Assembly: GCA_018711755.1 (NCBI GenBank)
Contig: DVHY01000170.1
Location: 1-42,656, forward strand
DNA length: 42,656 bases
Source: Candidatus Limivicinus faecipullorum
GTDB taxonomy: Bacteria; Bacillota; Clostridia; Oscillospirales; Oscillospiraceae
Direction of reading: 5' to 3'
Numbering within the stretch: position 1 is the stretch's first letter; each line of letters begins with the position of its first letter. Of this stretch, positions 4,757-26,369 are shown piece after piece. The notes beneath the pieces were generated by a model, which saw nothing but the letters and a program-made list of their open reading frames with translations, was not told the origin of the DNA and searched no databases. The position numbers and the translations under genes were made by a program.

Positions 4757-5386
4757 TCATCTCTCGAAAGCGGTCAGCCCGCATTCGTAGGGGTGGTCGT
4801 AGTACAGGGCTTCCCGGCCCTCCGGCCGGTAGCACAGGAGCTTTGCAATTATCAACATATCGCCCCCGCCGGCCAGGACCATGGTCACCGCCAGGACCAG
4901 CAGGAAGGGCCGGGCCAGGGCGATGGCGGCGGCGGAGAGGACAAGGCTCAGCACCAGAGTGGGCATGGCTCCGCCCAGGATGTACTGGCCCTTGGTGAGG
5001 GGTTCGGAGCAGCTGCAGTAGGGGGTGAGAGCTTTCCATATCACGCCGAAGGCTATGGAGCCGAAGCCCCTGGAGCAAAAGCGGCTCCAGGTGAGGCCGT
5101 GGATGAACTCGTGTACTGCTGTCAGGAGGAAAAAGACGGGGAAGAACACCAGCCACCAGAGCGAGCTCAGCTGAAAGCTGCCCTGGGGATTTACCAGAAA
5201 ATAAATGACCGTTATGGCAATGGCAAAAGGCAGACTCAACAGAAGGGAGAGTGTGTTGGCCGCCAGCAGACCCACTGTGAGCTCCCGTTTCCTGTAGCCG
5301 GCCTGCTCCATCTCCTGACAAAGCCGTTCATAGGCTTCCTTCCTCTTCAGCTCCGCCGGGCTCAGCTTCCGCTCTTTTCCCTTCAT
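4757..5386 (-). CDS. DUF3267-like polytopic membrane protein with HExxH motif (putative zincin peptidase)
   Basis: There are several hydrophobic segments, and HEFIH sits at the end of the second one. The start is trimmed to ATG 5386 (MKGKERK, GGAGGAG ribosome binding site) because a promoter lies inside the longer track ORF. Confidence 0.7.
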   Translation of the reverse strand: MKGKERKLSPAELKRKEAYERLCQEMEQAGYRKRELTVGLLAANTLSLLLSLPFAIAITVIYFLVNPQGSFQLSSLWWLVFFPVFFLLTAVHEFIHGLTWSRFCSRGFGSIAFGVIWKALTPYCSCSEPLTKGQYILGGAMPTLVLSLVLSAAAIALARPFLLVLAVTMVLAGGGDMLIIAKLLCYRPEGREALYYDHPYECGLTAFER

Positions 5387-5423
5387 TGCATGCTCTCCTC
5401 CATCCGAATTAACTGTGCCGTGG

Positions 5424-5452
5424 ATTATATCATGCCGTCCCGGCAAAAGTAA
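5424..5452 (-). promoter_or_regulatory. promoter with extended -10 for the DUF3267 gene
   Basis: On the minus strand: TTACTT, a 17-nt spacer, then TGaTATAAT. Confidence 0.45.
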
Positions 5453-5497
5453 AGATATCGGGGCGGGATTTAAGAATAATTAAGGGGATGCCGCCTT

Positions 5498-5686
5498 TCA
5501 TGGCCTGAAAAGTTCGTCCACCGTCAGCCCCAGCTCCCCGGCCAAGGCAAAGGCCAGGGCCAGGGTGGGGTCGTACTTGTTGTTCTCTATGGCGTTCACC
5601 GTCTGCCGGGTGACGGAGCAGCGTTTTGCCAGTTCCTCCTGGGAAAGGCCCAGCTCCTTTCGCCGCTCTCTTATGCAGTTTTCCAT
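5498..5686 (-). CDS. short XRE-family helix-turn-helix transcriptional regulator
   Basis: The 62-aa protein contains LSQEELAKRCSVTRQTVNAIENNKYDPTL, a classic Cro/C1 HTH. Its start lies 1 nt after the stop of the upstream membrane ORF. Confidence 0.85.
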   Translation of the reverse strand: MENCIRERRKELGLSQEELAKRCSVTRQTVNAIENNKYDPTLALAFALAGELGLTVDELFRP

Positions 5687-5687
5687 C

Positions 5688-5972
5688 TCAGCCCCCCAGC
5701 TTCCGCTTGAAATAGAGGCTGAAACAAAAATACATCGTGGCCGTCACGGTGAGGTGGATAAAGGGGTTTATCAGATCCACGCTGCCGGTGACAAAGCCCC
5801 TCACTATCTCGATGACCAGCATGCCCACCAGGCCCATAAGGGTCCAGGTGCTGGCCTTCCACACCACCATCTGCCGCCGCTCGTCCCCCGGCCGGAGCAG
5901 GGATATCAGCATGGCGATGTCCAGAACTATCATGGCGCAGAGCCACAGAATAAACAGCAGCGTCAAAAACAT
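5688..5972 (-). CDS. small membrane protein (about 3 TM) co-transcribed with the XRE regulator
   Basis: The 94-aa protein has three hydrophobic stretches. An AAAGGAGGA ribosome binding site lies 4 nt before the ATG, and the gene is coupled to the downstream HTH gene. Confidence 0.65.
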   Translation of the reverse strand: MFLTLLFILWLCAMIVLDIAMLISLLRPGDERRQMVVWKASTWTLMGLVGMLVIEIVRGFVTGSVDLINPFIHLTVTATMYFCFSLYFKRKLGG

Positions 5973-6147: not shown

Positions 6148-6176
6148 TTGACGAAAGGGGGAAAAAGGGGTATAAT
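6148..6176 (+). promoter_or_regulatory. sigma-70-like promoter of the CotH operon
   Basis: TTGACG (6148-6153), a 17-nt spacer, then TATAAT (6171-6176). It lies 30 nt upstream of the ATG; the ribosome binding site is GAGGAG. Confidence 0.5.
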
Positions 6177-6205: not shown

Positions 6206-8650
6206 ATGAATAAGAAAAGCCTGATAGCCTTTGCCGCCACGGCGGCAGCGGTGATAATAATAGCCCTGGCGGCGGCGCTGCTGCCGGGCGGGGGCGAGGG
6301 GGCGCCGGAGCAGCCGGCGGCCACGGCCCGGCCCACGGCCAGCCCCAGCCCGGACCCGGAGGAACTGAGCCGGGGAGCGGGCCAGGTGGTGATAAGCGAA
6401 TTTATGGAGAAGAACCGGAGCACCCTGCGGGACGAGGACGGGGACTTCTCCGACTGGATAGAGCTTTGGAACCGGAGCGATGAGGCGGTGGACATCTCCG
6501 GCTGGAATCTTTCCGACCGGGAAAATCAGCTGGGCTGGACCCTGCCGGAAATGAGCCTCCAGCCGGGAGAGCGGATAGTTATCTTCGCCTCCGGCAAGGA
6601 CCGGCAGGGGGCTGAGCTGCACACCGGCTTCAGCCTCTCCGGGGACGAGGGGGTCTGGCTGCGCAATGAGTACGGCTACCTCTGTTCCTCCGCCCTTTGC
6701 GCCGACTGCGATGGGGACGTATCCATGGCTCTGGGGGACGATGGCAGCTATGGGCAGAGCCTGTACCCCACGCCGGGCTATGAGAACACGGCGGCGGGCT
6801 GGGAGAGCTTCCAGCAGAGCCTGAGCTGTGAAAGCCCCCTTATAATAAACGAGGCTCAGGTGTATAACCTGAACCTTGCCCCGGTGAACAAGGAGTACTA
6901 CGACTGGGTGGAGCTGAAAAACAACAGCGGCGCCGCCCTGCTCCTCTCGGACTATTACATATCCGACGACAGGGACGACTATCTCCGATACCGTCTGCCG
7001 GAGGTGGAGCTGGGCCCCGGGGAGTTCATCCTCCTATACTGCACTTCCGAGGCCCTGCCGGAGGGCTATTACGCCGCCGGCTTTGAGCTGAACTCGGAAA
7101 ACGAGCAGCTGTACCTGGCCACGGCGGAGGGAGAGCTGCTGGACAGCGTCTCCCTGAAGGACATCCCCTATCTGGGCAGCTTCGGCCGCATGGCCGGGGA
7201 GAACGGCTGGTTCTACTTCTCCAGCCCCAGCCCCGGCAGTGAAAACAGCGGCGGGCAGCGCCGGGTGGCGGAAAAGCCTCTGAGCCTGACGGCGGACGGG
7301 GTGTATAACGGTATAGAGGGCATGTATGTGGAGCTCAGTGCCTCCGGCAGCATACGCTATACCCTGGACGGCTCGGCCCCCACGGCGGAGAGCCCGGAGT
7401 ATACCGGACCCATTTACATAGACAAGACCACGGTGATAAGGGCGGTAAACTTTGAGGAAGGCGCTCTGCCCAGCCGGGCAATGAGCCTGAGCTATATAAT
7501 AAACGAGAACCACAGCCTGCCGGTGCTGAGCCTGCTGACGGACAGCCCAGCGGAGTTTGACACCATGTATAACGCCAAGCAGAAGGGCGTGGAGCTGCCC
7601 GCCAGCCTGTCCCTTTACGAGGAGGACGGCAGCTTCACCATAGGCTGCGGGGTGTCCATGCACGGGGAGACCAGCCTGGTGCTGCCGAAGAAGAACATGT
7701 CCGTGCGCTTCCGTGGGGCCTACGGCCAGAGCACGCTGAACTACGACATCTATGACGGGGGCGTGACGGAGTTTACAAATCTTCTGCTGCGCTCGGGGCA
7801 GGACTTCCCCATATCCATTATAAGAAACGAGCTGAGCCAGGAGCTGTGCGCCCAGGCTACGGACAAGGTGATAAACCAGCGCAGCATCTACTGCATACTG
7901 TACATAAACGGGGAGTACTCCGGCATCTACACTCTGAAGGAGAAGGCCAACGAGCAGCTCTACGCGGGCATAGCCGGGGTGAGCCGGGACAGCGTGGAGG
8001 TGCTGGAGGCAAACGTGTCCCAGGGCTCGGATTTTTTCCATGAAGTGGTGGAGTTCTGCCGCTTCAACGACATGAGCCAGGAGGAGAACTACAGTCACTT
8101 CTGCCACATGTTCGATATAGACAGCGTCATCGACTGGCTGATACTGGAGGGCTACTGCGCCAATACGGACCTGACTTCCGGCAATGTGCGCTACTGCCGC
8201 TCCACGGAGAACGACGGGAAATGGCGGCTGATGTTCTACGACCTGGACGCCAGCTTTTCCACGCCCGCCAGCGTGTTCATGAACGTGCTCAGCGAATACG
8301 CCCAGCAGAACCGGCAGTTTGCCAGCTTCATGGTGCCCCTGATGGATAATGGGGAATTCAAGGACCGCTTCCTCAGCCGGGCGGCGGAGCTGATGGGGAG
8401 CGTGCTGACGGTGGAGAACGTGATGGGGGAGATAGACCGGCTCTGCGCCATAGTCGCCCCGGAGGTGGAGCGGGACTATGCCCGCTTCGGGGGTACGGCG
8501 GCGGACTGGGAGTGGTCGGTGGAGCAGCTGAAGGCGGTGCTCATCGACTACGACTGGCAGCAGCTGAATATAGACAATCTCTGCGAGCTCTTTGACCTGA
8601 GCTCAGAGGAGCGGGAACATTATTTCGGAGAGATAGACGGACGGCAATGA
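6206..8650 (+). CDS. membrane-anchored CotH-family kinase with two lamin-tail domains and a chitobiase-C-like module
   Basis: - N-terminal hydrophobic anchor followed by a Pro/Ala linker.
- Two LTD-like segments (ISEFMEKN..DWIELWN..ISGWNLSD and IINEAQVYN..YDWVELKNNS..LSDYYISD).
- IRYTLDGSAPT..IRAV, a CHB_HEX_C-like module.
- The C-terminal ~370 aa are CotH-like (LLLRSGQDF..IRNELS..YINGEYSGIYTLKEK..FYDLD). Confidence 0.85.
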   Translation: MNKKSLIAFAATAAAVIIIALAAALLPGGGEGAPEQPAATARPTASPSPDPEELSRGAGQVVISEFMEKNRSTLRDEDGDFSDWIELWNRSDEAVDISGWNLSDRENQLGWTLPEMSLQPGERIVIFASGKDRQGAELHTGFSLSGDEGVWLRNEYGYLCSSALCADCDGDVSMALGDDGSYGQSLYPTPGYENTAAGWESFQQSLSCESPLIINEAQVYNLNLAPVNKEYYDWVELKNNSGAALLLSDYYISDDRDDYLRYRLPEVELGPGEFILLYCTSEALPEGYYAAGFELNSENEQLYLATAEGELLDSVSLKDIPYLGSFGRMAGENGWFYFSSPSPGSENSGGQRRVAEKPLSLTADGVYNGIEGMYVELSASGSIRYTLDGSAPTAESPEYTGPIYIDKTTVIRAVNFEEGALPSRAMSLSYIINENHSLPVLSLLTDSPAEFDTMYNAKQKGVELPASLSLYEEDGSFTIGCGVSMHGETSLVLPKKNMSVRFRGAYGQSTLNYDIYDGGVTEFTNLLLRSGQDFPISIIRNELSQELCAQATDKVINQRSIYCILYINGEYSGIYTLKEKANEQLYAGIAGVSRDSVEVLEANVSQGSDFFHEVVEFCRFNDMSQEENYSHFCHMFDIDSVIDWLILEGYCANTDLTSGNVRYCRSTENDGKWRLMFYDLDASFSTPASVFMNVLSEYAQQNRQFASFMVPLMDNGEFKDRFLSRAAELMGSVLTVENVMGEIDRLCAIVAPEVERDYARFGGTAADWEWSVEQLKAVLIDYDWQQLNIDNLCELFDLSSEEREHYFGEIDGRQ

Positions 8651-9369
8651 ACGAGACGCAGCTGAGCTTCAAGCGTTATGAAAAGAAATATCTGCTGTCC
8701 CGGGAAAAGTACGGGCAGCTGTGGCGGGGGCTGGAGCCCCGGCTGGAGCCGGACCGCTTTTTTGAGAGCACGGTGCTGAGCCTGTACTACGACTGGGACG
8801 ATTTCCGCCTGATACGCAGCTCCATCGAGCAGCCGGTGTACAAGGAAAAGCTGCGCCTGCGCAGCTACAACGTGCCCGGGGCGGAGGACCAGGTCTTTGT
8901 GGAGCTGAAGAAGAAGTACAAGGGCATAGTGTATAAGCGCCGGGTCCGGATGCGGGAGCGGGAAGCGGAGGAGTATCTGGCGGGAGGGGGGAGCCCCCTG
9001 GCCGCCGACCAGATAAGCCGGGAGATAGACTGGTTTTTAAAGACCAACCCGGTGCGGCCCAAGGTGCTCATCGCCTGTGACCGCCGGGCCTATGTGGGCC
9101 GGGAGGAGCCGGGGCTGCGGCTGACCTTTGACAGCTCCATCCGCTGGCGGGACACCCAGCTGAGCCTCACCGCCGGGGACTTCGGCCGGGAGCTTTTGGA
9201 GGAGGGGCAGGTGCTCATGGAGATAAAGATGCCGGAGTCGGCCCCCCTGTGGCTGGCGGAGCTGCTCAGCAGCCTGGAGATCTTCCCCCGGAGCTTTTCC
9301 AAATACGGCCAGTGCTATAAAAACGAACTGATAGAAAAATACTTTGACGGAGTGATGGTAATTGCTTAA
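8647..9369 (+). CDS. VTC-domain protein (polyphosphate-polymerase-like triphosphate tunnel fold)
   Basis: It starts SFKRYEKKYLL and has alternating charged strands (KLRLRSY, VELKKKYKGIVYKRRV, RLTFDSSIRWR, VLMEIKMP). There is no signal peptide. The start forms an ATGA overlap with the CotH stop. Confidence 0.85.
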   Translation: MNETQLSFKRYEKKYLLSREKYGQLWRGLEPRLEPDRFFESTVLSLYYDWDDFRLIRSSIEQPVYKEKLRLRSYNVPGAEDQVFVELKKKYKGIVYKRRVRMREREAEEYLAGGGSPLAADQISREIDWFLKTNPVRPKVLIACDRRAYVGREEPGLRLTFDSSIRWRDTQLSLTAGDFGRELLEEGQVLMEIKMPESAPLWLAELLSSLEIFPRSFSKYGQCYKNELIEKYFDGVMVIA

Positions 9370-10039
9370 CCAACTGATAACCGACAGCGTGATAAACGGC
9401 GTGATCACCCTGCCCAGCTTTTTCATCTGCGTGCTGACGGCTCTGGCCCTGGGCTTGCTGACGGCCCTGGTCTTCACCGCCTACAGCTACCATACCGGCT
9501 CCCTGGCCATATCCCTGGCCCTGCTGCCCCCGGTGGTGGCGGTGGTCATCATGCTGGTCAACGGCAACGTGGGGGCGGGCCTGGCGGTGGCGGGCACCTT
9601 CGCTCTGGTGCGCTTTCGCAGCGTCCCCGGCTCCGCCCGGGAGATAACGGGGCTGTTCATGTCCGTGGCCCTGGGCCTGGCCTGCGGCATGGGTTATGTG
9701 GGCCTGGCGGCGCTGTTTTTCCTTGTGATGGCCGCCGCGGTGCTGATTCTGGGCCGCCTCCGCTTCGGGGAGGGGAGCCGCGCTAACCGGCAGCTGAAGA
9801 TAACCATCCCGGAGAACCTGGATTACGAGACCCTTTTTGACGACCTGTTTGAGAAATACACTCTCAGCCACGAGCTGGTGCGGGTGAAGACCAGCAACAT
9901 GGGCACCCTCTACGAGCTGTGCTACGAGGTGCGGCTGAAAGAGGCGGGGATAAGCAAGGCCTTTCTGGACGAGATACGCTGCCGCAACGGCAACCTCACC
10001 GTCATCTGCGGCCGGGAGAAAGAGGTGGAGACCATATGA
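9362..10039 (+). CDS. DUF4956-like membrane protein (4 TM plus soluble C-terminal domain)
   Basis: The TTG start overlaps the VTC gene by 8 nt. Hydrophobic segments are followed by VRFRSVPGSAREI and a ~95-aa soluble tail. Confidence 0.8.
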   Translation: MLNQLITDSVINGVITLPSFFICVLTALALGLLTALVFTAYSYHTGSLAISLALLPPVVAVVIMLVNGNVGAGLAVAGTFALVRFRSVPGSAREITGLFMSVALGLACGMGYVGLAALFFLVMAAAVLILGRLRFGEGSRANRQLKITIPENLDYETLFDDLFEKYTLSHELVRVKTSNMGTLYELCYEVRLKEAGISKAFLDEIRCRNGNLTVICGREKEVETI

Positions 10040-11226
10040 AAAAGACCCTGGCCCCGGCCCTGCTGCTGAGCCTGTGCCTGGCCCTGGCCGGGTGCAGCGG
10101 CGGCGCCGGCGTCCCCGGAGAGGAATTGACGGAGCTGGAACAGCTGGGGGCCGCCGCCACGGTTATAAGCCTGGAGGGCGGCACGGCGGAGATAGAGGGC
10201 CCGGGTGCTTCTTTTGAAAACGGCCTTGTCACCCTCAGCACCGGGGGCAGCTTTCTTATCCGGGGCAGCCTGGAAAACGGCCGCATCCTGGTGGACACCG
10301 GGGAGACCAAGCAGGAGGTGGAGCTCATCCTGGAATCGGTGAGCATCCACTGTGAAAATGACGCCGCCTTGTATGTGGAGCGGGCGGAAAAGACCCGGAT
10401 ATACGTGAAGGAGGGAGAGCCCAGCCGCCTCAGCTCCGGCGCTCCGAGGACGGACAGCCAGGTCCTCACCGAAGCCAGCGGCGCCGCGGTCTACGGGGAG
10501 GACGACCTGGACTTCATGGGCCCCGGCACCCTTATAATAGAAGGTAACATCAATAACGGCATAGGCTGCAAAAACGACGTGGATATAAACGGCGGCGAGC
10601 TGAAGATCAGCGCCGCGAACCACGGTATAAAGGGCAACGAGTCGGTGGATATAAAGGGCGGCCAAGTGAGCATCAGCTGCCTTAACGACGGCCTGAAGAC
10701 CGACGACGCGGAGAAAGAAGGCAAAGGCTCGGTGAATATCACCGGGGGCGCCCTGAATATCAGCTCCCAGGATCAGGGCATCAGCTCCATAAAGGATATC
10801 AACATCACCGGCGGTGAGGTGAATATCGTCTCCCAGAGGGACGGGCTGAATGCCGACAAGGAGCTGGGCGGCTCCGTGAATATAAGCGGCGGCAGCGTGT
10901 TCATAAGCTCCGGCAACGACGCCATAGACGCCTCCGGCGGGGTGCTGAGCATCAGCGGCGGCAGCCTGTTGGCCCTGGGCAAGGACAAGGATATCAAGGC
11001 CGCAGTGGAAGCCTCCATCCCCTGCTATGCAGGGAGCCTGAAGCTGGCGGAGGGGGAGACTCTGGAACTCCGCAGAGCCAGCGGAGAGAGCCTGGTAAGT
11101 CAGAGCGCCTGGGAGATAAAGACCGCCTATATCGCCCTGGCAGACGCCTCCGACGGTGAGGAGCTGGAGCTCTTCATTGGCAGCGGAGAGGAGCGGGAGA
11201 GCCGGGGGAGCATTACTCTTGACTAA
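10036..11226 (+). CDS. Cthe_2159-like carbohydrate-binding beta-helix lipoprotein
   Basis: The track ORF is trimmed to ATG 10036, which forms an ATGA overlap with the upstream stop. The signal peptide MKKTLAPALLLSLCLALAGC ends in a lipobox. The C-terminal part contains six V(D/N)I.GG...I repeats. Confidence 0.75.
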   Translation: MKKTLAPALLLSLCLALAGCSGGAGVPGEELTELEQLGAAATVISLEGGTAEIEGPGASFENGLVTLSTGGSFLIRGSLENGRILVDTGETKQEVELILESVSIHCENDAALYVERAEKTRIYVKEGEPSRLSSGAPRTDSQVLTEASGAAVYGEDDLDFMGPGTLIIEGNINNGIGCKNDVDINGGELKISAANHGIKGNESVDIKGGQVSISCLNDGLKTDDAEKEGKGSVNITGGALNISSQDQGISSIKDINITGGEVNIVSQRDGLNADKELGGSVNISGGSVFISSGNDAIDASGGVLSISGGSLLALGKDKDIKAAVEASIPCYAGSLKLAEGETLELRRASGESLVSQSAWEIKTAYIALADASDGEELELFIGSGEERESRGSITLD

Positions 11227-11250
11227 GAAAAGCCGATAACAAAACAAGAA

Positions 11251-11277
11251 AAGCGAGCCGGATTTCGGCTCGCTTTT
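11251..11277. terminator. bidirectional intrinsic terminator between the CotH operon and the GNAT gene
   Basis: The stem is GCGAGCCG/CGGCTCGC (11253-11260 with 11266-11273). It is flanked by an A-run upstream and TTTT downstream. Confidence 0.6.
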
Positions 11278-11296: not shown

Positions 11297-11776
11297 TCAC
11301 TTGTTTTCCAGCCCACGGAGACTGTCGCCGGCAAGGCGGTAGACTGTCCAGTCCTCCATGGGTGTGGCGTCCAGAGAGAGGTAAAAATCTATGCTGGGTT
11401 TGTTCCAGTCCAGGCAGGCCCATTCCAGACGCCCGCAGCCGCGCTCCCGGGCTATGCGCCCCAGCTGCTGCAAGGTGGCCTTGCCATAGCCCTTGCCCCG
11501 GTGCTCAGGCTTTATGAACAGGTCCTCCAGATAGAGCCCGGCCCGGCCCAGGAAGGTGGAGAAATTGTGGAAGAAGAGGGCAAAGCCAACTTCCTCCCCG
11601 TCCACTACAGGGAAGATGACCTCGGCCTTTCCCTTTTCAAATATCCACTCCCTCAGCAGCTCCTCCGTGGCCACCACCTGGTCCGGCATCTTCTCGTATT
11701 CTGCCAGGGCCTTTATAAAGGAGAGGATAAGGGGGCAGTCCTCAGGGGAGGCGAAACGAAAGCTGATATCCTTCAT
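11297..11776 (-). CDS. GNAT-family N-acetyltransferase (diamine/SSAT-like)
   Basis: The 159-aa protein has the acetyl-CoA motif KPEHRGKGYGKATL. The overall layout matches spermidine/spermine-type GNATs. Confidence 0.85.
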   Translation of the reverse strand: MKDISFRFASPEDCPLILSFIKALAEYEKMPDQVVATEELLREWIFEKGKAEVIFPVVDGEEVGFALFFHNFSTFLGRAGLYLEDLFIKPEHRGKGYGKATLQQLGRIARERGCGRLEWACLDWNKPSIDFYLSLDATPMEDWTVYRLAGDSLRGLENK

Positions 11777-11787
11777 GCCCGGCCTCC

Positions 11788-12990
11788 TCAGGAGTAGCTG
11801 GCATAGATGTCGGAGTAATCCCGCACCATGTCGTCCCCTTCGTAGGTGCCCAGTATCTTGCTCATGGCCCGGTCGTATTCCTCGGTGCCCGGCTCATAGG
11901 GGGTGGGCTTGTAGTCGTTGTAGTTGTCCACATTGTTTGCAGCCCCCTCCAGGTCGCTGGACACACAGCAGGGGATGATCTCATAGCTGTCGTTGTGGAT
12001 GCTGCCGTCGCCGTCCCGGCGTATCTTCAGCTGGAAGATGGCGGTGTCCGGGTCGGTGGGCTTGGTGCTGCCGCCGAAGCTCCAGTTGCCCATGGAGTAG
12101 AGGATGATGCCGTCCTTATACTCCTCCAGGGGCTGGAGACAGTGGGAGTGGCTGCCGTAGATCAGGTCGGCCCCGGCGTCTATGCAGGCGTGGGCCAGCT
12201 CCACCTGGGCGTCGGTGGGCCGGTATTTCAGCTCGCTGCCCCAGTGGAACATGCACACTATGTAATCCACGCCCTGGCTCTCAAAGTCGGCAATGGCGGC
12301 CAGGGCCTTGTCCTTGTCGGGGATGTTGGTGCTGCCGGTGCCTATGGAGTCCCCGTCCCCGGCGGTGTAGATGCCCATCTTTATGCCGCTGGGGGTGGTG
12401 ATGACCTGGGACTGCTCGTCCTCGCCGTAGGCCATGCCTATGCCGTCCAGGGCGGCCTTGGTGTCCTCCAGCCCGGCGTCGTTAAAGTCCATGGTGTGGT
12501 TGTTGGCTATGGTGACGAAGTCCACTCCGCCTTCCGGCAGTATCTGTATCCACTCGGCAGGGCAGAGGAAATAGAACTGGGCGTAGATGGAGTTTTGCAG
12601 CTTCTTATCGGAGAAGCTGCACTCCAGGTTCCCCAGGGTCAGCTCGTCGCCGGAGAAGTACTGGACGGTGTTGGCAAAGGGGTAACTGTAGTCCCCGTTC
12701 ATCTTGGAGGCATAGTGGGCGGAACTCTGCTCAGAGAAATACTGGTTGGTGGTAAGGGTCATGTCTCCGATGCAGGAGATGGTGAAGTACTCCGGCTCCG
12801 GCTCGGGGGTGGGCTCCGGCGTGGGGGTGGGGGAGCTCTCCGCCGCCAGGGTGTCCACCGTCTCATTGCTGCTGTCGTCGGCAGCGGCCTCCGGTATTAT
12901 GGTCAGAGCCAGATCCAGTCTTGCCTTGGATATAAAGACCAGGGTCAGGCACAGCAGGGCCAGAATGATGACTTGCAGAACTCTTTTCAT
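11788..12990 (-). CDS. CapA-family (PGA_cap metallophosphatase-like) exported protein
   Basis: The track ORF is trimmed to MKRVLQVIILALLCL, a signal/anchor sequence. CapA-type motifs are present: ISCIGDMTL, ANNHTMDF, MFHWGSE and GSHSHCLQP. Confidence 0.8.
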   Translation of the reverse strand: MKRVLQVIILALLCLTLVFISKARLDLALTIIPEAAADDSSNETVDTLAAESSPTPTPEPTPEPEPEYFTISCIGDMTLTTNQYFSEQSSAHYASKMNGDYSYPFANTVQYFSGDELTLGNLECSFSDKKLQNSIYAQFYFLCPAEWIQILPEGGVDFVTIANNHTMDFNDAGLEDTKAALDGIGMAYGEDEQSQVITTPSGIKMGIYTAGDGDSIGTGSTNIPDKDKALAAIADFESQGVDYIVCMFHWGSELKYRPTDAQVELAHACIDAGADLIYGSHSHCLQPLEEYKDGIILYSMGNWSFGGSTKPTDPDTAIFQLKIRRDGDGSIHNDSYEIIPCCVSSDLEGAANNVDNYNDYKPTPYEPGTEEYDRAMSKILGTYEGDDMVRDYSDIYASYS

Positions 12991-13050
12991 ATCTCTTGTC
13001 CTCGTCCTCCGGCGAAGCTGCGGGAGCGGCCGGAGCATATGTAAATATAA

Positions 13051-13080
13051 ATTATATCTCTCGCCAGAATAAGACGGCAA
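13051..13080 (-). promoter_or_regulatory. possible promoter for the CapA gene
   Basis: On the minus strand: TTGCCG, an 18-nt spacer, then TATAAT. It lies just after the acyltransferase stop. Confidence 0.3.
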
Positions 13081-13084
13081 AAAG

Positions 13085-14101
13085 CTACAATAGTTTCCGC
13101 ACCAGGGGCATCTTTTTTGCAGCCAAGGCCAACAGCGTACACACCAAGGCCAGCAAGGCTGTGAAGCCCAGCACGCTGAGCACCGGCCTGTCCAGACTCA
13201 TGTTGAGCCCCAAAAGCTGGAGAATGTTTATCAGCATGGGGTGGAGCAGGTATATACCCAGGGTGGCGTCGGCCAGGGCGGCCCAGGCTTTGGGATGGCG
13301 GAATTCCCGCCCCTTCAGGGCCTGGAAGAAGCAGAAGATCATGGTGGCCTGGATGAGGCTGGGCAGGGAGAAATAGCTGAAGAGCCAGCCGTCGGCCACC
13401 TGCTTGTAGTTGGAGTACCAGATGTTGCCCCAGGTGGTGAGGGCCGTCACCGCCAGGAACACCGCCGGGGCGATGAGGAGCCAGACTTTTTTAAACTCCC
13501 TGCCGCTGAGCCAGTAGCCCCAGACGGCGTAGCCCAGATAGGGCAGGTAGTCGAAGGAGAAGTTCAGGGTTATACGGTAGAGTATGGGGGCGGTGTCCGG
13601 GGTGAGGTTGAAGTTTGCAAAGAGTATGGACACGCCGAAAAAGAGGAAGAGCAGATAGCCTGTGGGCAGGCCGCCCCGGTGGATGGCGGCGTGGGCCGCC
13701 GGGAGAAAGAGGCAGCAGAGCACCATGGCCGTGAGGAACCACAGGTGGTAGTGACCCTGGACAAAGGAATAGACAAAGTCGTAGAGGCTGCCGAAGCTGC
13801 CGGAGGCCAGGCGGCTCAAAAGGGCATAGGCCAAAGACCAGAAGCAGAAGAGGAGCAGCAGCCGCAATGGGTGCCTTATAAGGAAAGACTTCAGCTCCAG
13901 CTTTTCCCGGGAGAGGAAGAGGGCCCCGGTGAGCATGAAGAACACCGGCACGCCGCCCCGCAGCATGGTGCTTATGAAGCTGAGGGACAGGAAGGCCGGG
14001 GAGTCCAGGGGGCAGATATGGTACAGCTCTGCGCTGGTGTGTATAAATAGGACCATAAGGCAGGCCGTGATACGGCACAGGTCCAGTTCAGTTCGTCTCA
14101 T
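13085..14101 (-). CDS. acyltransferase-3 (AT3) family integral membrane acyltransferase
   Basis: The protein has about 10 hydrophobic segments. The N-terminal DLCRITACLMVLFIHT (His in TM1) is typical of AT3. Confidence 0.8.
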   Translation of the reverse strand: MRRTELDLCRITACLMVLFIHTSAELYHICPLDSPAFLSLSFISTMLRGGVPVFFMLTGALFLSREKLELKSFLIRHPLRLLLLFCFWSLAYALLSRLASGSFGSLYDFVYSFVQGHYHLWFLTAMVLCCLFLPAAHAAIHRGGLPTGYLLFLFFGVSILFANFNLTPDTAPILYRITLNFSFDYLPYLGYAVWGYWLSGREFKKVWLLIAPAVFLAVTALTTWGNIWYSNYKQVADGWLFSYFSLPSLIQATMIFCFFQALKGREFRHPKAWAALADATLGIYLLHPMLINILQLLGLNMSLDRPVLSVLGFTALLALVCTLLALAAKKMPLVRKLL

Positions 14102-21432: not shown

Positions 21433-22521
21433 TCACGCTCCTTTGCTTTCCAGAGGGAGGGTAAATTCCACCCTTGCCCCGCCCTGGGGCAGATTTTCCG
21501 CATGTATGCTGCCGCCGTGGGCCTCCACGATACTGCGGCAGACGCTGAGGCCGATGCCCATGCAGCGGGTGGTGTCCGCCGCGCCGGAGCCGCTGAGCTG
21601 CAGGCTGCCGTCGAAAAGATGGGGCAGGGTCTCCGGGGCTATGCCCACTCCGTCGTCCTCCACGCCTATGGCCACGCCGCTGCTGAGCTGCCGGGCATAG
21701 AGGCGTATGCTGGTGGTGCCCCGGCCGTGGGTGCGGGCGTTGTCCATAAGGTTGAAGATGACCTGCTCGATGAGCATGGCGTCCATGGGCACCAGCAGCA
21801 CCTCTTCCGGGACGGAGACGGTGAGCTTCACGTCGCTGTAGCGTTTGCGGAAATTCATCACCGCCTCGCTGAATACCTCCTCCACTATCTCGTCCTGCTT
21901 GTTGATGCGGCTTATCTCGCCGCCGCTGATGCGGGTGATGGACAGGAGGTTCTCCACCATGCGGCAGAGCCAGTCGGCGTCCTGCTTGGCGTCCAGCAGC
22001 AGCTCTTTCTGCTGCTCTCTGGACAGGGCCTCACCTCCGTCCTCCAGCACCGTGGCAATGGAGCCGCTGATGGCGGTGAGGGGGGTGCGCAGATCGTGGG
22101 ACACGGCCCGCAGGAGATTGGCCCGCATCTTCTCCCGCTCCGACTCGGCCCGGAGCTTTTCCTGGGCCTTCAGCCGGGTGGTGAGAGTGCTCACCGCAAA
22201 GCCCACCGCCAGCATGGTCATGAAGGTGAGGGGGTAGCCATAGATGGAGAAGTCCAGCTTCAGGTAGGGATAGGTAAAGGCGTAGTTCACGCCCAGCACG
22301 CTGCTGCCGGCGGCCAGCAGCCCGTAGAAATAACCGTCGGTACACAGGGCCACCACCAGCACCGCCAGCACGAATATCATGGGCACGTGGGTATCGGAAC
22401 TGGTAGTGTGTCCCAGCATCCAACACAGGGCTGAAGCTACGGCCATGGCAGCCACATAAACCAGCCAGCCCTTGGAGGACAGGGGGAAATATTTCTTGAA
22501 AAATTCGCATATGGCGCTCAT
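21433..22521 (-). CDS. sensor histidine kinase with KdpD-type membrane domain only (no N-terminal KdpD/Usp sensor)
   Basis: Four TM segments (DUF4118-like) are followed by the H-box RAVSHDLRTPLT. The N and G boxes are present (FNLMDNARTH, GIGLSVCRSIVEAHGG). Confidence 0.85.
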   Translation of the reverse strand: MSAICEFFKKYFPLSSKGWLVYVAAMAVASALCWMLGHTTSSDTHVPMIFVLAVLVVALCTDGYFYGLLAAGSSVLGVNYAFTYPYLKLDFSIYGYPLTFMTMLAVGFAVSTLTTRLKAQEKLRAESEREKMRANLLRAVSHDLRTPLTAISGSIATVLEDGGEALSREQQKELLLDAKQDADWLCRMVENLLSITRISGGEISRINKQDEIVEEVFSEAVMNFRKRYSDVKLTVSVPEEVLLVPMDAMLIEQVIFNLMDNARTHGRGTTSIRLYARQLSSGVAIGVEDDGVGIAPETLPHLFDGSLQLSGSGAADTTRCMGIGLSVCRSIVEAHGGSIHAENLPQGGARVEFTLPLESKGA

Positions 22522-24269: not shown

Positions 24270-24956
24270 ATGCGGATTTTGGTGGTAGACGACGAGAAGC
24301 TGCTGGTCAAGGGCATAAAATTCAATCTGGAGAACGAGGGCTACACCGTGGACGCCTGCTATGACGGGGAGACGGCGGTGGAGCTGGCCCGGAAGGGTGA
24401 CTACGACCTCATCATCCTGGACCTGATGATGCCGAAAAAGGACGGGCTGGAGGCCTGCCAGGAGATACGGGGCTTTTCCACCGTGCCCATCATCATGCTC
24501 ACCGCCCGCAGCCAGGATGCGGACATGCTTTTGGGCTTTGAGTCCGGGGCGGACGACTATGTGACCAAGCCCTTCAACATACTGGCTCTGAAGGCCCGGG
24601 TGCGGGCGCTGCTGCGCCGGGCCTCCATAACCTCGTCCCCGGAGCACGGGGAGGCGAAGCTCCTGAGCGCCGGGCACATAAGCCTGGACGAGCAGGGCCG
24701 CCGGGCCATGAAGAACGGCCAGGAGGTGGAGCTGACCATGAAGGAGTTCGACCTGATGCTCTTTCTCATGAAGAACCCCGGCAAGGTCTACAGCCGGGAG
24801 AGCCTGCTGGACCTGGTCTGGGGCTACGACTACCAGGGGGACACCCGCACCGTGGACGTGCATGTGCGCCGGCTGCGGGAGAAGCTGGAGCTGAACCCGG
24901 CCAAGCCCAGGTACATCCTCACCAAATGGGGTGTGGGCTACTACTTTGCCCAGTAA
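24270..24956 (+). CDS. OmpR-family response regulator
   Basis: The receiver domain reads MRILVVDDE..DLIILDLMMPKKDG..ADDYVTKPF. The winged-helix region reads RTVDVHVRRLREKLE..TKWGVGY. Confidence 0.9.
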   Translation: MRILVVDDEKLLVKGIKFNLENEGYTVDACYDGETAVELARKGDYDLIILDLMMPKKDGLEACQEIRGFSTVPIIMLTARSQDADMLLGFESGADDYVTKPFNILALKARVRALLRRASITSSPEHGEAKLLSAGHISLDEQGRRAMKNGQEVELTMKEFDLMLFLMKNPGKVYSRESLLDLVWGYDYQGDTRTVDVHVRRLREKLELNPAKPRYILTKWGVGYYFAQ

Positions 24957-24971
24957 GGGAGGAAGAGCCTT

Positions 24972-26369
24972 ATGAGGAGCCTGCGCTTCCGCTTTTTCTT
25001 TTTCCTGGCCGTGCTGCTGATTGTGCTGCTGCTGATGCTGAATATCTTTCCCATCACCTCCTCCCGGGACACGGTGTTCCAGGAGAAGGAGAGCTCCATC
25101 TCCGGCCAGGCGGCCATCCTGGCCGCCTCCCTGGCCAAGCTGGACGAGCCGGACCAGGCCAGCGTGGGGGAGGTGCTGCGGCTGCTGAACATCAGCGGCT
25201 TTGAGCGCACCGTGGTGGTGGACACCCAGGGCCGGACCTTGTACTATACCTACGGCAGCACCGCCAAGGACAGCGAGGAAAAGGACCTGAGCACCGCCCT
25301 GTCGGGCAAGACGGTGTTCCGCTCAAAATATGACGGGGACTCCTTCCTCAGCAGCTACGCCATACCCATCAGCCGCCAGGGTGCCATAACCGGGGCGCTG
25401 TACCTGCAGGAGCGGGACGAGATGCGGGCGGGGATAATTCTGGACGTGGAAAACCAGATACGGATGATCTCCGCGGTGATAGTGCTGACGGTGCTGGTGC
25501 TGGCGATGGTCTTCTCCTCGGTGATACTGCGGCGCATACATGAGCTGTCCAACTCCATGCGCATCGTGGCCGCCGGGGACTACAGCCACCGGCTCCAGGT
25601 CAGCGGCAGCGACGAGCTGACGGACCTGGGCAACGAGTTCAACACCCTCACCCAGCGGCTGGACGCCACGGAGCGGGAGCGGCGGCGCTTCGTCTCCGAC
25701 GCCTCCCACGAGCTGAAGACCCCTCTGGCCTCCATCCGGCTGCTGTCCGACAGCATAGTGCAAAACGAGAATATCGACACGGAGACGGTGCGGGAGTTCG
25801 TCACGGACATCGGCAACGAGGCCGAGCGGCTCCAGCGCACCACGGAGAAGCTGCTGGACCTGTCCCGCCTGGACGACGACATCCAGGTCATACCCGAGCC
25901 GGTGGACGTAAAGCAGGTGGCGGTGGACGCCCTGGTGCTGCTGCGGCCCCTGGCCAAGGAGCGGCAGATACGCCTGCGCTGTGAGCTGGAGGACGGCTGC
26001 GTGGTCATGGCCACGGTGGACGACATGTTCCATATAATTTTCAATCTCATAGAAAACGCGATAAAATATAATGTGGACCAGGGCAGCGTCTATGTGAAGC
26101 TGGAGCAGACGGAGGACAAGGTGCAGTTCACCGTGGAGGACACGGGCATCGGCATCCCCGAGGAGGACAGGTACAATATCTTCACCCGCTTTTACCGGGT
26201 GGACAAGGCCCGCTCCCGGGAGGCGGGGGGCAGCGGCCTGGGGCTGAGCATAGTGCATGCGGCGGTGAAGGCCCACGGGGGCAGCATCCTGGTGGGGGAC
26301 AACAAGCCCCAGGGTTCCCGTTTTACGGTGAGCTTTCCAAAACCTACGGAGGAAGAGACAGGCATATGA
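24972..26369 (+). CDS. sensor histidine kinase (2 TM, extracytoplasmic loop, HAMP, HisKA, HATPase)
   Basis: The H-box is FVSDASHELKTPL, the N-box is LIENAIKYN, and the G-boxes are DTGIGIP and GGSGLGLSIV. Confidence 0.9.
   Translation: MRSLRFRFFFFLAVLLIVLLLMLNIFPITSSRDTVFQEKESSISGQAAILAASLAKLDEPDQASVGEVLRLLNISGFERTVVVDTQGRTLYYTYGSTAKDSEEKDLSTALSGKTVFRSKYDGDSFLSSYAIPISRQGAITGALYLQERDEMRAGIILDVENQIRMISAVIVLTVLVLAMVFSSVILRRIHELSNSMRIVAAGDYSHRLQVSGSDELTDLGNEFNTLTQRLDATERERRRFVSDASHELKTPLASIRLLSDSIVQNENIDTETVREFVTDIGNEAERLQRTTEKLLDLSRLDDDIQVIPEPVDVKQVAVDALVLLRPLAKERQIRLRCELEDGCVVMATVDDMFHIIFNLIENAIKYNVDQGSVYVKLEQTEDKVQFTVEDTGIGIPEEDRYNIFTRFYRVDKARSREAGGSGLGLSIVHAAVKAHGGSILVGDNKPQGSRFTVSFPKPTEEETGI

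Follow-up and report, generated by a model that had tools for sequence, protein, structure and literature searches.

A conserved gene pair encoding a predicted Vtc4-type tunnel-domain protein and a DUF4956 membrane protein in a four-gene operon of a gut Oscillospiraceae bacterium

Results and Discussion

The VTC and DUF4956 genes constitute a two-protein core unit that occurs across Bacillota and extends to Actinomycetota, and on the chromosome of the gut Oscillospiraceae bacterium Candidatus Limivicinus faecipullorum they occupy the middle of a translationally coupled four-gene operon, CotH-VTC-DUF4956-Cthe_2159, in which every neighbouring pair of genes overlaps. The window analyzed was the whole 42,656-nt stretch of contig DVHY01000170.1 (GCA_018711755.1), and its features are listed in Table 1. 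The gene pair is already catalogued, the cotH/VTC/DUF4956 set having been published in 2010, 2020 and 2025 as accessory genes; the locus in the window adds a CotH-VTC-DUF4956-Cthe_2159 case.

Table 1. Features of the operon in the window and equivalent residues of the VTC protein and yeast Vtc4.
Feature	Position	Strand	Basis or remark
Candidate sigma-70-like promoter, TTGACG-17-TATAAT, 11/12	6148..6176	+	Consensus match alone; ~30 nt 5′ of CotH start
Gene 1, CotH, membrane-anchored extracytoplasmic protein, 814 aa	6206..8650	+	Pfam, hydropathy
Gene 2, VTC (Vtc4-type triphosphate-tunnel) domain protein, soluble, 240 aa, putative polyphosphate polymerase	8647..9369	+	
Translational-coupling junction	9349..9369	+	GGAG Shine-Dalgarno, TTG start, 8-nt overlap
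Gene 3, DUF4956 integral membrane protein, 225 aa, ~5 TM helices in residues 17-132	9362..10039	+	
Conserved cytoplasmic loop VRFRSVPGSAREI, residues 83-95	9608..9646	+	Signature RFRSxPG...EI, three conserved Arg
C-terminal ACT/PII-like, ferredoxin-like domain, residues 142-216	9785..10009	+	AF2 secondary structure; invariant RxRNGNL motif
Gene 4, Cthe_2159 beta-helix carbohydrate-binding lipoprotein, 396 aa	10036..11226	+	Pfam E 1.9e-60
GC-rich 12-bp hairpin, A-run and T-run on either side	11249..11277	.	
VTC residues (Vtc4 equivalents): R10 (R196), E12 (T198), K14 (K200), R70 (R264), R72 (R266)			
VTC residues (Vtc4 equivalents): K88 (K281), K97 (K294), C144 (Y359), R146 (R361), R158 (R373)			
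VTC residues (Vtc4 equivalents): E192 (E426), K194 (K428), S218 (S457), K219 (K458)			

Operon Structure and Conservation of the Gene Pair

Both ORFs of the pair were present exactly as the original prediction had given them. The VTC ORF runs from an ATG start to a TAA stop, and ATGA overlaps join the CotH TGA stop to the VTC ATG and the DUF4956 TGA to the Cthe_2159 ATG. At the central junction, the anticipated 8-nt overlap was observed, with the DUF4956 TTG start (9362) sitting inside the last 8 nt of VTC (TTGCTTAA) and a GGAG Shine-Dalgarno (9349-9352) inside the VTC gene, 9 nt 5′ of this TTG. Through this overlapping stop/start junction, the two proteins are expected to be produced in fixed proportion. 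Judging from the consensus match, the TTGACG-17-TATAAT element is likely the operon promoter, while the hairpin, which separates the operon from a convergent GNAT gene, probably terminates transcription in both directions. The GC3 was 0.83 in the VTC ORF and 0.77-0.83 in the flanking operon ORFs (the DUF4956 ORF being left out by the ORF filter), which is typical for coding sequence of the host genome.

DUF4956 was located directly downstream of VTC in 84/84 testable loci; the same arrangement on the same strand was found in 78/78 testable GTDB-species loci, and the order was also observed in 5/5 plasmid-collection records (Actinomycetota included) and one fecal scaffold. The paired loci span Clostridia, Enterococcus, Planococcus and Nonomuraea, covering three classes and two phyla. 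An NTGCTTRA junction with the start codon exactly at −8 was carried by 55 of 79 loci (the window and 78 fetched loci), the start codons being GTG, ATG and TTG in 34, 18 and 3 of them, respectively. In addition, the pairwise-distance correlation between VTC and DUF4956 was 0.62-0.66, and that with Cthe_2159 was 0.40-0.49. The original prediction had proposed a tight coupling of the tunnel protein to a dedicated membrane partner, and the adjacency and the recurrent 8-nt overlap bear it out. A chance adjacency and overlap of two genes with unrelated functions is a reading of negligible probability; no point was found in its favour, and it is effectively refuted by the synteny data, namely the unbroken adjacency across classes and phyla and the conserved −8 junction.

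The VTC-Domain Protein

The Pfam assignments of VTC (E 1.7e-39, 136 bits, cut-off 23) and DUF4956 (E 3.9e-14, 53 bits, cut-off 30.6) are far above chance. Sequence and structural model both identify the 240-aa product as a true tunnel domain of the Vtc4 type, and its resemblance to the CYTH/TTM enzymes is weaker. A PDB search with a profile of 77 VTC homologues matched only Vtc4, Vtc2 and Vtc3 (best 3.6e-14), and the top 13 Foldseek neighbours of the AF2 model (pLDDT 93) were Vtc4, Vtc3 and Vtc2 (E 7e-14), yeast VTC being the best structural match with a TM of 0.73, while the CYTH/TTM hydrolases ranked after them (E 5e-8 or worse, TM 0.41-0.54). All the motifs quoted in the original prediction were recovered (YEKKY 11-15, KLRLRSY 68-74, VELKKKY 85-91, YKRRVRM 96-102, RLTFD 158-162 and MEIK 191-194), and a maximum 19-residue hydropathy of 0.83 agrees with its view that the protein lacks TM segments.

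The catalytic tunnel domain (Pfam PF09359) has its homologue in the VTC complex of eukaryotes (yeast Vtc4/Vtc3/Vtc1; PDB 3G3Q/3G3R, 7YTJ, 8I6V). The protein retains eight of the nine catalytic residues of Vtc4, and the comparison with the Vtc4 core that had been suggested revealed a conserved basic tunnel lining and metal-binding Glu. The equivalents of the triphosphate-binding K200, R264, R266, K281, R361, S457 and K458 and of the Mn2+ Glu, E426, are at least 98% conserved among 145 cluster representatives, the pairing of E192 with E426 being taken from motif position rather than from a printed residue-level alignment. The polymerase-specific Lys equivalent to K458, which is 99% conserved, corresponds to a residue by which Vtc4, which is active, differs from the inactive Vtc2 and Vtc3 and whose equivalent is dispensable in TTM hydrolases. 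The protein also shares with Vtc4 an exit path of basic character and a plug-type helix at the C-terminus that begins at the SK motif, and, as in yeast, it has a membrane protein as its associate, here through gene pairing. However, it differs from the yeast system in having no SPX domain, in being a separate soluble protein that is not fused to TM helices, and in its shorter beta4-beta5 loop, which in Vtc4 docks on the pore (with W287). The partner also differs, a ~5-TM DUF4956 protein with an ACT-like domain replacing the 3-TM DUF202.

Two departures from Vtc4 bear on the reaction. The Y359 position is occupied by Cys in the window clade (16/19 close homologues) and by Tyr in 63/77 diverse homologues, and Y359F in yeast leads to less polyP. 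Thr198 of Vtc4 is replaced by an invariant Glu, E12, at the position of the second ExExK Glu of hydrolytic TTM enzymes. Both features would suit a VTC protein that is no polymerase. Working at the membrane with DUF4956, it might instead hydrolyse triphosphates or polyP, bind polyP, or catalyse some other TTM-type reaction, for instance that of a cyclase. The hydrolases of this group (AtTTM3, E. coli YgiF, C. thermocellum TTM, ThTPase and the CyaB cyclase) share the eight-stranded tunnel fold and the triphosphate substrate chemistry predicted for the VTC protein, and AtTTM3 shares the Vtc4 tunnel centre and yet is a tripolyphosphatase only, so that polymerase activity does not necessarily follow from the fold and the centre residues. 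We nevertheless regard such a function as rather improbable, since three of the four acidic-patch positions that a second, hydrolytic metal site requires carry basic residues, as they do in Vtc4 (R10, K97-R99 and K194), with Arg in place of the first ExExK Glu, Lys at the E171 equivalent and KRR in the E90 region. The near-invariant Vtc4-type catalytic Lys and the Vtc4, Vtc2 and Vtc3 neighbourhood in both sequence and structure likewise argue against it. A literature search found no assay of any bacterial VTC-domain protein.

The DUF4956 Membrane Protein

Family-averaged hydropathy and the positive-inside rule fit five TM helices better than the four of the original prediction, with the N-terminus predicted outside and the C-terminus inside. 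The loop VRFRSVPGSAREI, which had been described as conserved-looking and cytoplasmic, is the most conserved stretch of the family (77 sequences, 42-91% identity), R84, R86 and S87 being invariant, and its family average of 3.0 K/R places it on the cytoplasmic side under the positive-inside rule. The C-terminal domain, put earlier at ~95 aa, comprises ~93 aa with a predicted cytoplasmic beta-alpha-beta-beta-alpha-beta fold (AF2, pLDDT 68-76 there), and Foldseek returned weak matches to PII-like, SbtB and ACT-type folds (E 0.03-0.1); in the streptococcal orthologue it was named an ACT domain in a published AF2 analysis. The whole model has low confidence (pLDDT 62).

Overall, DUF4956 looks like a five-TM MgtC-like domain to which an ACT-like domain is joined on the cytoplasmic side. 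In 50/77 members, MgtC was matched consistently but below the family threshold (best E 0.0094; threshold 31.4 bits), and MgtC/SapB/YhiD proteins (PF02308) similarly carry a small multi-TM domain with Gly-rich central helices and then an ACT-like domain. The relationship is unproven because hhalign against E. coli YhiD was negative; moreover, the RFRSxPG and VNGN signatures are DUF4956-specific, and MgtC proteins have no known pairing with a TTM enzyme. DUF4956 is no homologue of the eukaryotic VTC transmembrane domain; DUF202, the channel domain there, gave only noise in the family (5/77 members, E ≥ 1.4).

MgtC-family proteins are known as regulators, not pores. A tentative reading is a membrane-tethered intracellular module, in which DUF4956 would serve as an MgtC-like anchor or regulator, its ACT-like domain sensing a ligand and the VTC enzyme being switched by it, the polyP staying in the cytoplasm. 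On the same tentative footing, this polyP might serve phosphate or energy homeostasis or envelope-stress adaptation, with the surface proteins merely co-regulated. The MgtC signal and the shared MgtC/YhiD architecture favour this reading, as do the OmpR-type two-component systems often found adjacent and the known action of MgtC on F-ATPase and PhoR rather than in transport. However, the YhiD comparison counts against it, and it leaves unexplained the consistent company of secreted and lipoprotein partners and exopolysaccharide loci.

Surface Partners and Proposed Function

The CotH and Cthe_2159 products are both predicted from sequence to be extracytoplasmic. The former carries an N-terminal hydrophobic anchor (residues ~7-25), a Pro-rich linker, two LTD domains (E 1.2e-25), a CHB_HEX_C/Fn3-associated domain and a CotH kinase domain (residues 483-778, Pfam E 1.8e-37), and the latter has the lipobox LAGC at residues 17-20. 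Cthe_2159 adjoins the pair in 38/53 loci, and a two-component system does so in ~23/53. The original prediction was silent on CotH, on Cthe_2159 and on the published accounts of the gene set.

In other species, the cotH/VTC/DUF4956 set adjoins Pel and GT2-type exopolysaccharide loci. Gram-positive pel loci carry cotH, "polyphosphate polymerase" and DUF4956 accessory genes (Whitfield et al. 2020, PMC7112168), and C. perfringens NELoc-2 also carries the set (Lepp et al. 2010, PMC2879425). The same three families cluster there: CotH, which is secreted, the VTC domain, and a membrane protein that combines 4-5 TM helices with an ACT-like domain; in the window, however, the order is CotH-VTC-DUF4956, followed by the Cthe_2159 lipoprotein instead of DUF4832. 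Unlike the pel loci, the window contained no pel genes or GT2 synthase among the ORFs scanned with Pfam; the 2025 paper reported no such trio outside Pel loci (PMC12345266). In S. intermedius (SIR_1594-1592), deletion of DUF4956 or cotH altered Pel-dependent aggregation and Pel levels, and no phenotype was reported for the VTC-gene deletion (PMC12345266); this is the only genetic study of these orthologues.

The best explanation is that the tunnel enzyme would, like yeast Vtc4, use a nucleoside triphosphate and a divalent metal to polymerise phosphate, as suggested by the full set of phosphate-contacting basic residues, the metal Glu of site 1, the polymerase-specific Lys and the basic, non-acidic chain-exit path. 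DUF4956 would hold the polymerase at the membrane and then either control it through the ACT-like domain or pass the nascent chain outward. The product would most likely serve a cell-surface or matrix function, because CotH and Cthe_2159 are predicted to be extracytoplasmic and the pair lies beside exopolysaccharide loci elsewhere. We give this explanation, taken whole, about an even chance of being correct. Counted against it are the Cys at the Y359 position, the invariant E12 and the motif-based E192-E426 pairing, together with the MgtC-like character of DUF4956, its lack of kinship with the VTC pore and its model pLDDT of 62, and also the S. intermedius VTC deletion, which has no reported phenotype, unlike that of DUF4956.

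A specific form of the outward route, synthesis-coupled export, is as tentative as the intracellular reading. A DUF4956 oligomer would form a polyanion-conducting pore, with VTC docking on the basic RFRS loop and nascent polyP being threaded to the cell surface, and in function the pair would then be a genuine counterpart of the eukaryotic VTC complex. The universal pairing and conserved translational coupling are consistent with it, as are R84, R86 and R93, a conserved ring-forming candidate at the cytoplasmic face, and the Gly-rich DUF4956 helices, which suit tight packing. By prediction, two of the four gene products lie outside the cytoplasm; secreted Cthe_2159, CotH and exopolysaccharide loci are frequent neighbours, and yeast VTC provides a precedent for coupling. 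However, DUF4956 has an MgtC-like signal instead of homology to the VTC pore domain, its predicted TM helices contain no conserved basic residues, only N67/N69 and boundary arginines, and its structural model falls below usable confidence. The S. intermedius VTC and DUF4956 deletions also do not phenocopy each other, whereas matching phenotypes would be expected of an obligate synthase-channel pair. The synthesis-coupled translocation put forward in the original prediction is a plausible hypothesis, and the sole published genetic result does not favour it.

The placement of CotH varies among the loci, the gene being located downstream of the pair in Enterococcus, Nonomuraea and Planococcus.

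Operon Organization and Conservation of the VTC-DUF4956 Pair

The genes for the VTC tunnel-domain protein and the DUF4956 membrane protein are the second and third genes of a four-gene operon, of which the original prediction covered these two only. Both ORFs begin and end where they had been placed, with the ATG and TTG starts shown in the table. The CotH, VTC and DUF4956 genes are contiguous on one strand over 6206-10039, and every junction of the operon overlaps; in the raw sequence, the CotH TGA overlaps the VTC ATG and the DUF4956 TGA overlaps the Cthe_2159 ATG. Its four products are thus a cytoplasmic enzyme, an integral membrane protein and two extracytoplasmic proteins, and translational coupling extends over all of them.

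Features of the operon and of its surroundings, in window coordinates
Feature	Coordinates	Strand	Description
DUF3267 protein	4757-5446	-	putative zincin peptidase
HTH_3/XRE regulator	5498-5686	-	62 aa
Membrane protein	5688-5972	-	94 aa, without Pfam match
Sigma-70-like promoter	6148-6176		consensus match 11/12
CotH (gene 1)	6206-8650	+	814 aa; one N-terminal hydrophobic anchor, Pro-rich linker, two lamin-tail domains, CHB_HEX_C/Fn3-associated domain, CotH kinase domain
VTC (gene 2)	8647-9369	+	240 aa, ATG start; Pfam VTC E 1.7e-39
DUF4956 (gene 3)	9362-10039	+	225 aa, TTG start; Pfam DUF4956 E 3.9e-14
Cthe_2159 (gene 4)	10036-11226	+	lipoprotein, lipobox LAGC, Cthe_2159 beta-helix domain
Strong hairpin	11249-11277		separates operon from convergent genes
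GNAT acetyltransferase	11297-11776	-
PGA_cap/CapA-like protein	11788-13080	-	N-terminal anchor
Acyl_transf_3 O-acyltransferase	13085-14101	-	membrane protein
KdpD-like histidine kinase	21433-22521	-	DUF4118-HisKA-HATPase, without N-terminal sensor
OmpR-type response regulator and HAMP histidine kinase pair	24270-26369	+

The pairing of the two genes was examined in 80 Clostridia loci from different GTDB species (44-88% identity), two of which lay at a contig end and were left out. DUF4956 was located directly downstream of VTC in all 78 remaining loci, in 5/5 plasmid-collection records with a VTC match (Acetoanaerobium, Enterococcus, Paenibacillus, Planococcus and Nonomuraea, down to 29% identity) and in the single unverified "phage" fecal scaffold, giving 84/84 in total. 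The raw sequence at the junction reads ...GGAGTGATGGTAATTGCTTAA, in which the DUF4956 TTG stands 8 nt before the end of the VTC stop codon, with a GGAG 9 nt upstream of the TTG, so that the predicted 8-nt overlap is seen directly. A start codon at exactly -8, within an NTGCTTRA junction behind GGAGG, was observed in 55 of 79 loci (the 78 fetched and the window); the start is usually GTG and otherwise ATG or TTG, and the junction is read as "-Ala-stop" in one frame and as "Met-Leu-Asn/Asp" in the second. This conservation validates the unusual TTG start and rules out an artefact, since GTG, ATG or TTG occupies the homologous position. It also indicates that stoichiometric co-translation persisted while the proteins diverged to 41-91% identity. 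The synteny of VTC and DUF4956 is therefore obligate, with translational coupling, and the tight coupling to a dedicated membrane partner that had been proposed is borne out. Pairwise distances of VTC correlated with those of DUF4956 at r 0.62-0.66, against 0.40-0.49 with Cthe_2159, without phylogeny correction, which lends weak extra support to the pairing.

Two metagenomic scaffolds deposited as phage carry a VTC gene, namely MT836222.1 and MT835527.1 (5188-6616), the latter an "UNVERIFIED: Bacteriophage sp." fecal scaffold that also harbors DUF4956, again overlapping at -8. Either bacterial contigs have been misclassified here, or the copies are prophage-borne.

Family and Fold of the VTC Protein

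Both family assignments made originally are borne out by Pfam, well above the curated cut-offs. The VTC match (PF09359) scored 136.2 bits against a cut-off of 23, with residues 9-225 spanning positions 1-232 of the 235 in the profile, and the VTC domain alone covers the 240-aa protein, with no SPX domain found by Pfam. All six motifs quoted in the original prediction are present in the translation, and the protein has no hydrophobic or transmembrane segment, the maximum 19-residue hydropathy being 0.83. The family is very large, with at least 7,917 clusters at 90% identity and at least 5,001 representatives at 50% identity (E ≤ 1e-3), 768 of them at ≤ 1e-30 among the matches listed. Its members are nearly all free-standing proteins of 230-260 aa, and no fusion proteins were seen among the best 150 of the 5,001 or more representatives.

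A phmmer search of the PDB with the single VTC protein gave no match, so a family profile was needed to reach the structures; a profile built from 77 diverse members recovered yeast Vtc4, Vtc2 and Vtc3 and nothing else (best E 3.6e-14). The AF2 model (pLDDT 93) placed the protein in the same company, as its 13 best Foldseek neighbours were all tunnel domains of Vtc4, Vtc3 or Vtc2 (E 7e-14 to 7e-11, TM 0.73), whereas the CYTH/TTM hydrolases and cyclases ranked after them (E at least 5e-8, TM 0.41-0.54).

Catalytic Residues: Polymerase or Hydrolase

In the VTC cryo-EM paper, the triphosphate ligands of Vtc4 are K200, R264, R266, K281, R361, K458, S457 and Y359, with E426 as the Mn2+ ligand, and K458 is the only listed residue at which the inactive Vtc2 and Vtc3 depart from Vtc4. 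Residue roles were taken from that paper and transferred by profile alignment to 3G3Q. The window residues K14 (Vtc4 K200), R70 (R264), R72 (R266), K88 (K281), R146 (R361), S218 (S457) and the polymerase-specific K219 (K458) are 98-100% conserved among 145 representatives. Y359 is not kept: the window protein has Cys144 (codon 144, 9076-9078), and in this Oscillospiraceae clade the position is Cys in 16/19 close homologues and Ser in a few, while Tyr occurs in 63/77 diverse homologues (~80%). The Cys may alter nucleotide handling or reduce activity. From motif register and global superposition, E192-I-K194 of the MEIK motif is inferred to be the counterpart of Vtc4 E426-V-K428. E192 is 99% conserved and lies 10 residues before the conserved PxW...FSK[YF], against 14 residues for E426-x-K428 in Vtc4; the HMM alignments did not span this stretch, and a C-terminal sub-profile aligned only the RxTxD strand.

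According to Martinez et al. 2015, the acidic patch of hydrolytic TTM proteins (AtTTM3 E2, E4, E90 and E171) binds a second, water-activating metal, while the same positions in Vtc4 are basic and guide the chain out. Three of the four positions are basic in the bacterial family as in Vtc4 (R10, K97/R98/R99 and K194), and the fourth (AtTTM3 E4) is E12, an invariant acid. The original prediction had suggested an alignment to Vtc4 as a check; by it, the seven basic and Ser ligands, K458 included, are kept, and Y359 is lost. That the protein is a non-polymerase enzyme appears quite improbable to us; AtTTM3 does teach that having a Vtc4-like tunnel centre is no proof of polymerase activity, and E12 and C144 are real caveats, but on balance the residues make the protein look like a polymerase, not a hydrolase. 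In the literature that we searched, no bacterial VTC enzyme has been characterised or assayed.

The DUF4956 Membrane Partner

The partner matched DUF4956 (PF16316) at 53.2 bits against a cut-off of 30.6, in a family of at least 7,932 clusters. Its conserved core reads LP..V..I..VNGN.G..AV.G.F.L.RFRS.PG..EI..F...GL..G.G, in which the signature VNGNxG...RFRSxPG...EI is invariant or nearly so in 77 sequences, and the C-terminal domain carries an invariant RxRNGNL. Though four TM helices had been predicted, five fit the family-averaged hydropathy and the Lys/Arg distribution, with the N-terminus predicted outside and the RFRS loop and C-terminal domain inside. The loop itself is as conserved as had been suggested, with R84, R86 and S87 invariant and a predicted cytoplasmic location. 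The AF2 model was poor (pLDDT 62, from a shallow alignment of 19 sequences) and has helices at 17-40, 47-67, 70-86, 92-110 and 113-132, followed by a beta-alpha-beta-beta-alpha-beta domain. Foldseek matches to this model were all non-significant and covered the C-terminal ferredoxin-like domain only, with weak PII-like and ACT-type matches. Within the operon, CotH and Cthe_2159 are extracytoplasmic, while a cytoplasmic location is predicted for the VTC enzyme and for the RFRS loop and ACT-like domain of its partner.

The DUF4956 profile found no match among PDB sequences, and DUF202 was hit in only 5/77 DUF4956 members at E of at least 1.4, which is noise. Judged by such profile comparisons, DUF4956 is unrelated to DUF202, the 3-TM pore domain of eukaryotic VTC. 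The originally proposed analogy to the eukaryotic complex thus extends to the Vtc4-type tunnel domain and not to the partner, which is not a DUF202-type pore domain. By far the commonest secondary match was MgtC (PF02308), sub-threshold in 50/77 members (best E 0.0094); the window protein reached 10.4 bits (E 0.89), short of the gathering score of 31.4 bits. A 2025 study (PMC12345266) described an AlphaFold model of the streptococcal orthologue as an MgtC-type TM domain with an ACT domain. Despite the recurrent weak Pfam signal, MgtC membership was not adopted, as the hhalign comparison of the DUF4956 profile with E. coli YhiD (MgtC family) was negative (probability <1%). The protein is MgtC-like in architecture, with no membership claimed.

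Genomic Neighbours and the Published Accessory Module

Cthe_2159 adjoins the pair in 38/53 analysed loci, and OmpR-type two-component systems do so in about 23/53 Clostridia loci. CotH, sought with a sensitive HMM, lies within 6 kb of the pair in only 8/80 Clostridia loci, which rules it out as part of a universal core, though it recurs beside the pair in the distant taxa Enterococcus, Nonomuraea and Planococcus. The Planococcus maritimus plasmid NZ_CP059541.1 (4067-10666) carries a plasmid-borne variant of the module, in the order hypothetical TIM-barrel-like protein, VTC, DUF4956, CotH, a 689-aa protein without Pfam match and a HEAT-repeat protein. This order matches that of C. perfringens NELoc-2, where a chitin-synthase-like glycosyltransferase comes next (PMC2879425), suggesting a second conserved type of super-operon. 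A two-component system lies inside the module on the Enterococcus faecalis plasmid LR962858.1 (6001-11128), where genes for an OmpR-type response regulator and then a histidine kinase stand between VTC-DUF4956 and CotH.

Whitfield et al. 2020 (PMC7112168) listed accessory genes that lie contiguous with pel operons of Gram-positive bacteria, namely cotH, a "polyphosphate polymerase", DUF4956 and DUF4832. In the window, cotH, VTC and DUF4956 are likewise contiguous, but they do not adjoin a pelDEADAFG locus, and no pel-type genes or other polysaccharide synthase were found among the Pfam-scanned ORFs of the 42.6 kb. The S. intermedius paper of 2025 did not find the trio outside Pel loci (PMC12345266), a statement to which the window is a counter-example. 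Pfam, NCBI and three papers already contain these families with their annotation and synteny, and the window is a further instance and not a new class; its arrangement, with Cthe_2159 and without Pel, is slightly new.

Proposed Function and Significance

We propose that the VTC enzyme and DUF4956 would form a complex that makes polyP at the membrane, and that the product would serve a surface function. This general reading, of a VTC-type polymerase unit that is associated with the membrane and has a role directed to the surface, stands, in our judgement, at an even balance of probability. Indirect support for docking of the tunnel exit on a membrane pore and for polyP translocation comes from synteny and translational coupling. 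Two narrower readings overlap with this general statement. DUF4956 might act as a conduit through which polyP is actually translocated, a tentative reading for which the surface partners of the operon and the precedent of yeast VTC speak; against it, the partner is MgtC-like, no conserved basic residues lie within its TM helices, and the phenotypes of S. intermedius mutants do not match, since loss of either the DUF4956 or the cotH orthologue cut aggregation in sputum medium by half and altered Pel levels while deletion of the VTC gene gave no reported change (PMC12345266). Alternatively, DUF4956 might be a gate, that is, a purely regulatory partner, which we likewise consider possible but doubtful.

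The stronger proposal, that a bacterial VTC-type polymerase and DUF4956 deliver polyP outside the cell as a non-homologous prokaryotic counterpart of synthesis-coupled translocation, is rather improbable; it is drawn from homology and genomic context, with one discordant genetic result, and our literature search found no explicit proposal of the pair in this role. If true, exported polyP could be the phosphoryl donor of anchored or secreted CotH kinases, which would solve the problem of kinases working where ATP is absent, or it could be a polyanionic cross-linker or ligand for surface polymers, cationic Pel included, and for Cthe_2159-type beta-helix proteins. The eukaryotic Vtc4 catalytic domain could then also have its evolutionary origin in the bacterial module, and polyP biology and biofilm matrices would both be concerned.

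In the usual division (e.g., in a 2025 review), the "eukaryote-type" polyP polymerase is VTC and the "prokaryote-type" one is PPK. Against this division stands a very large bacterial family that keeps the Vtc4 catalytic signature and is locked to one membrane protein; should the enzyme prove active, bacteria would have a third route to polyP. The partners in these operons (CotH kinases, beta-helix lipoproteins and exopolysaccharide loci, the last including C. perfringens pathogenicity loci and streptococcal Pel loci) point to a cell-surface or biofilm-matrix role. The module is compact (two genes, ~1.4 kb) and easy to test, and the residue map tells which point mutants to make.

Surroundings of the Operon

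The remaining window is ordinary chromosome, with dnaE, whiA, rapZ, murB, hprK, rplA, rplK and nusG among the ORFs scanned with Pfam, and the closest relatives, all from gut samples, are uncultured Oscillospiraceae and Candidatus Limivicinus. None of the four operon proteins has a model in NCBIfam, and an Rfam scan of the whole window found nothing, hence no riboswitch leader. The KdpD-like kinase and the response regulator-kinase pair lie 10-15 kb from the operon, and nothing ties either to it. Three genes (4757-5972) diverge from the operon promoter, of which the small XRE regulator is a candidate that could control the operon. Convergent with the operon is another group of three (11297-14101), encoding the acetyltransferase, the CapA-like protein and the O-acyltransferase, which may be another surface-polymer modification cluster.
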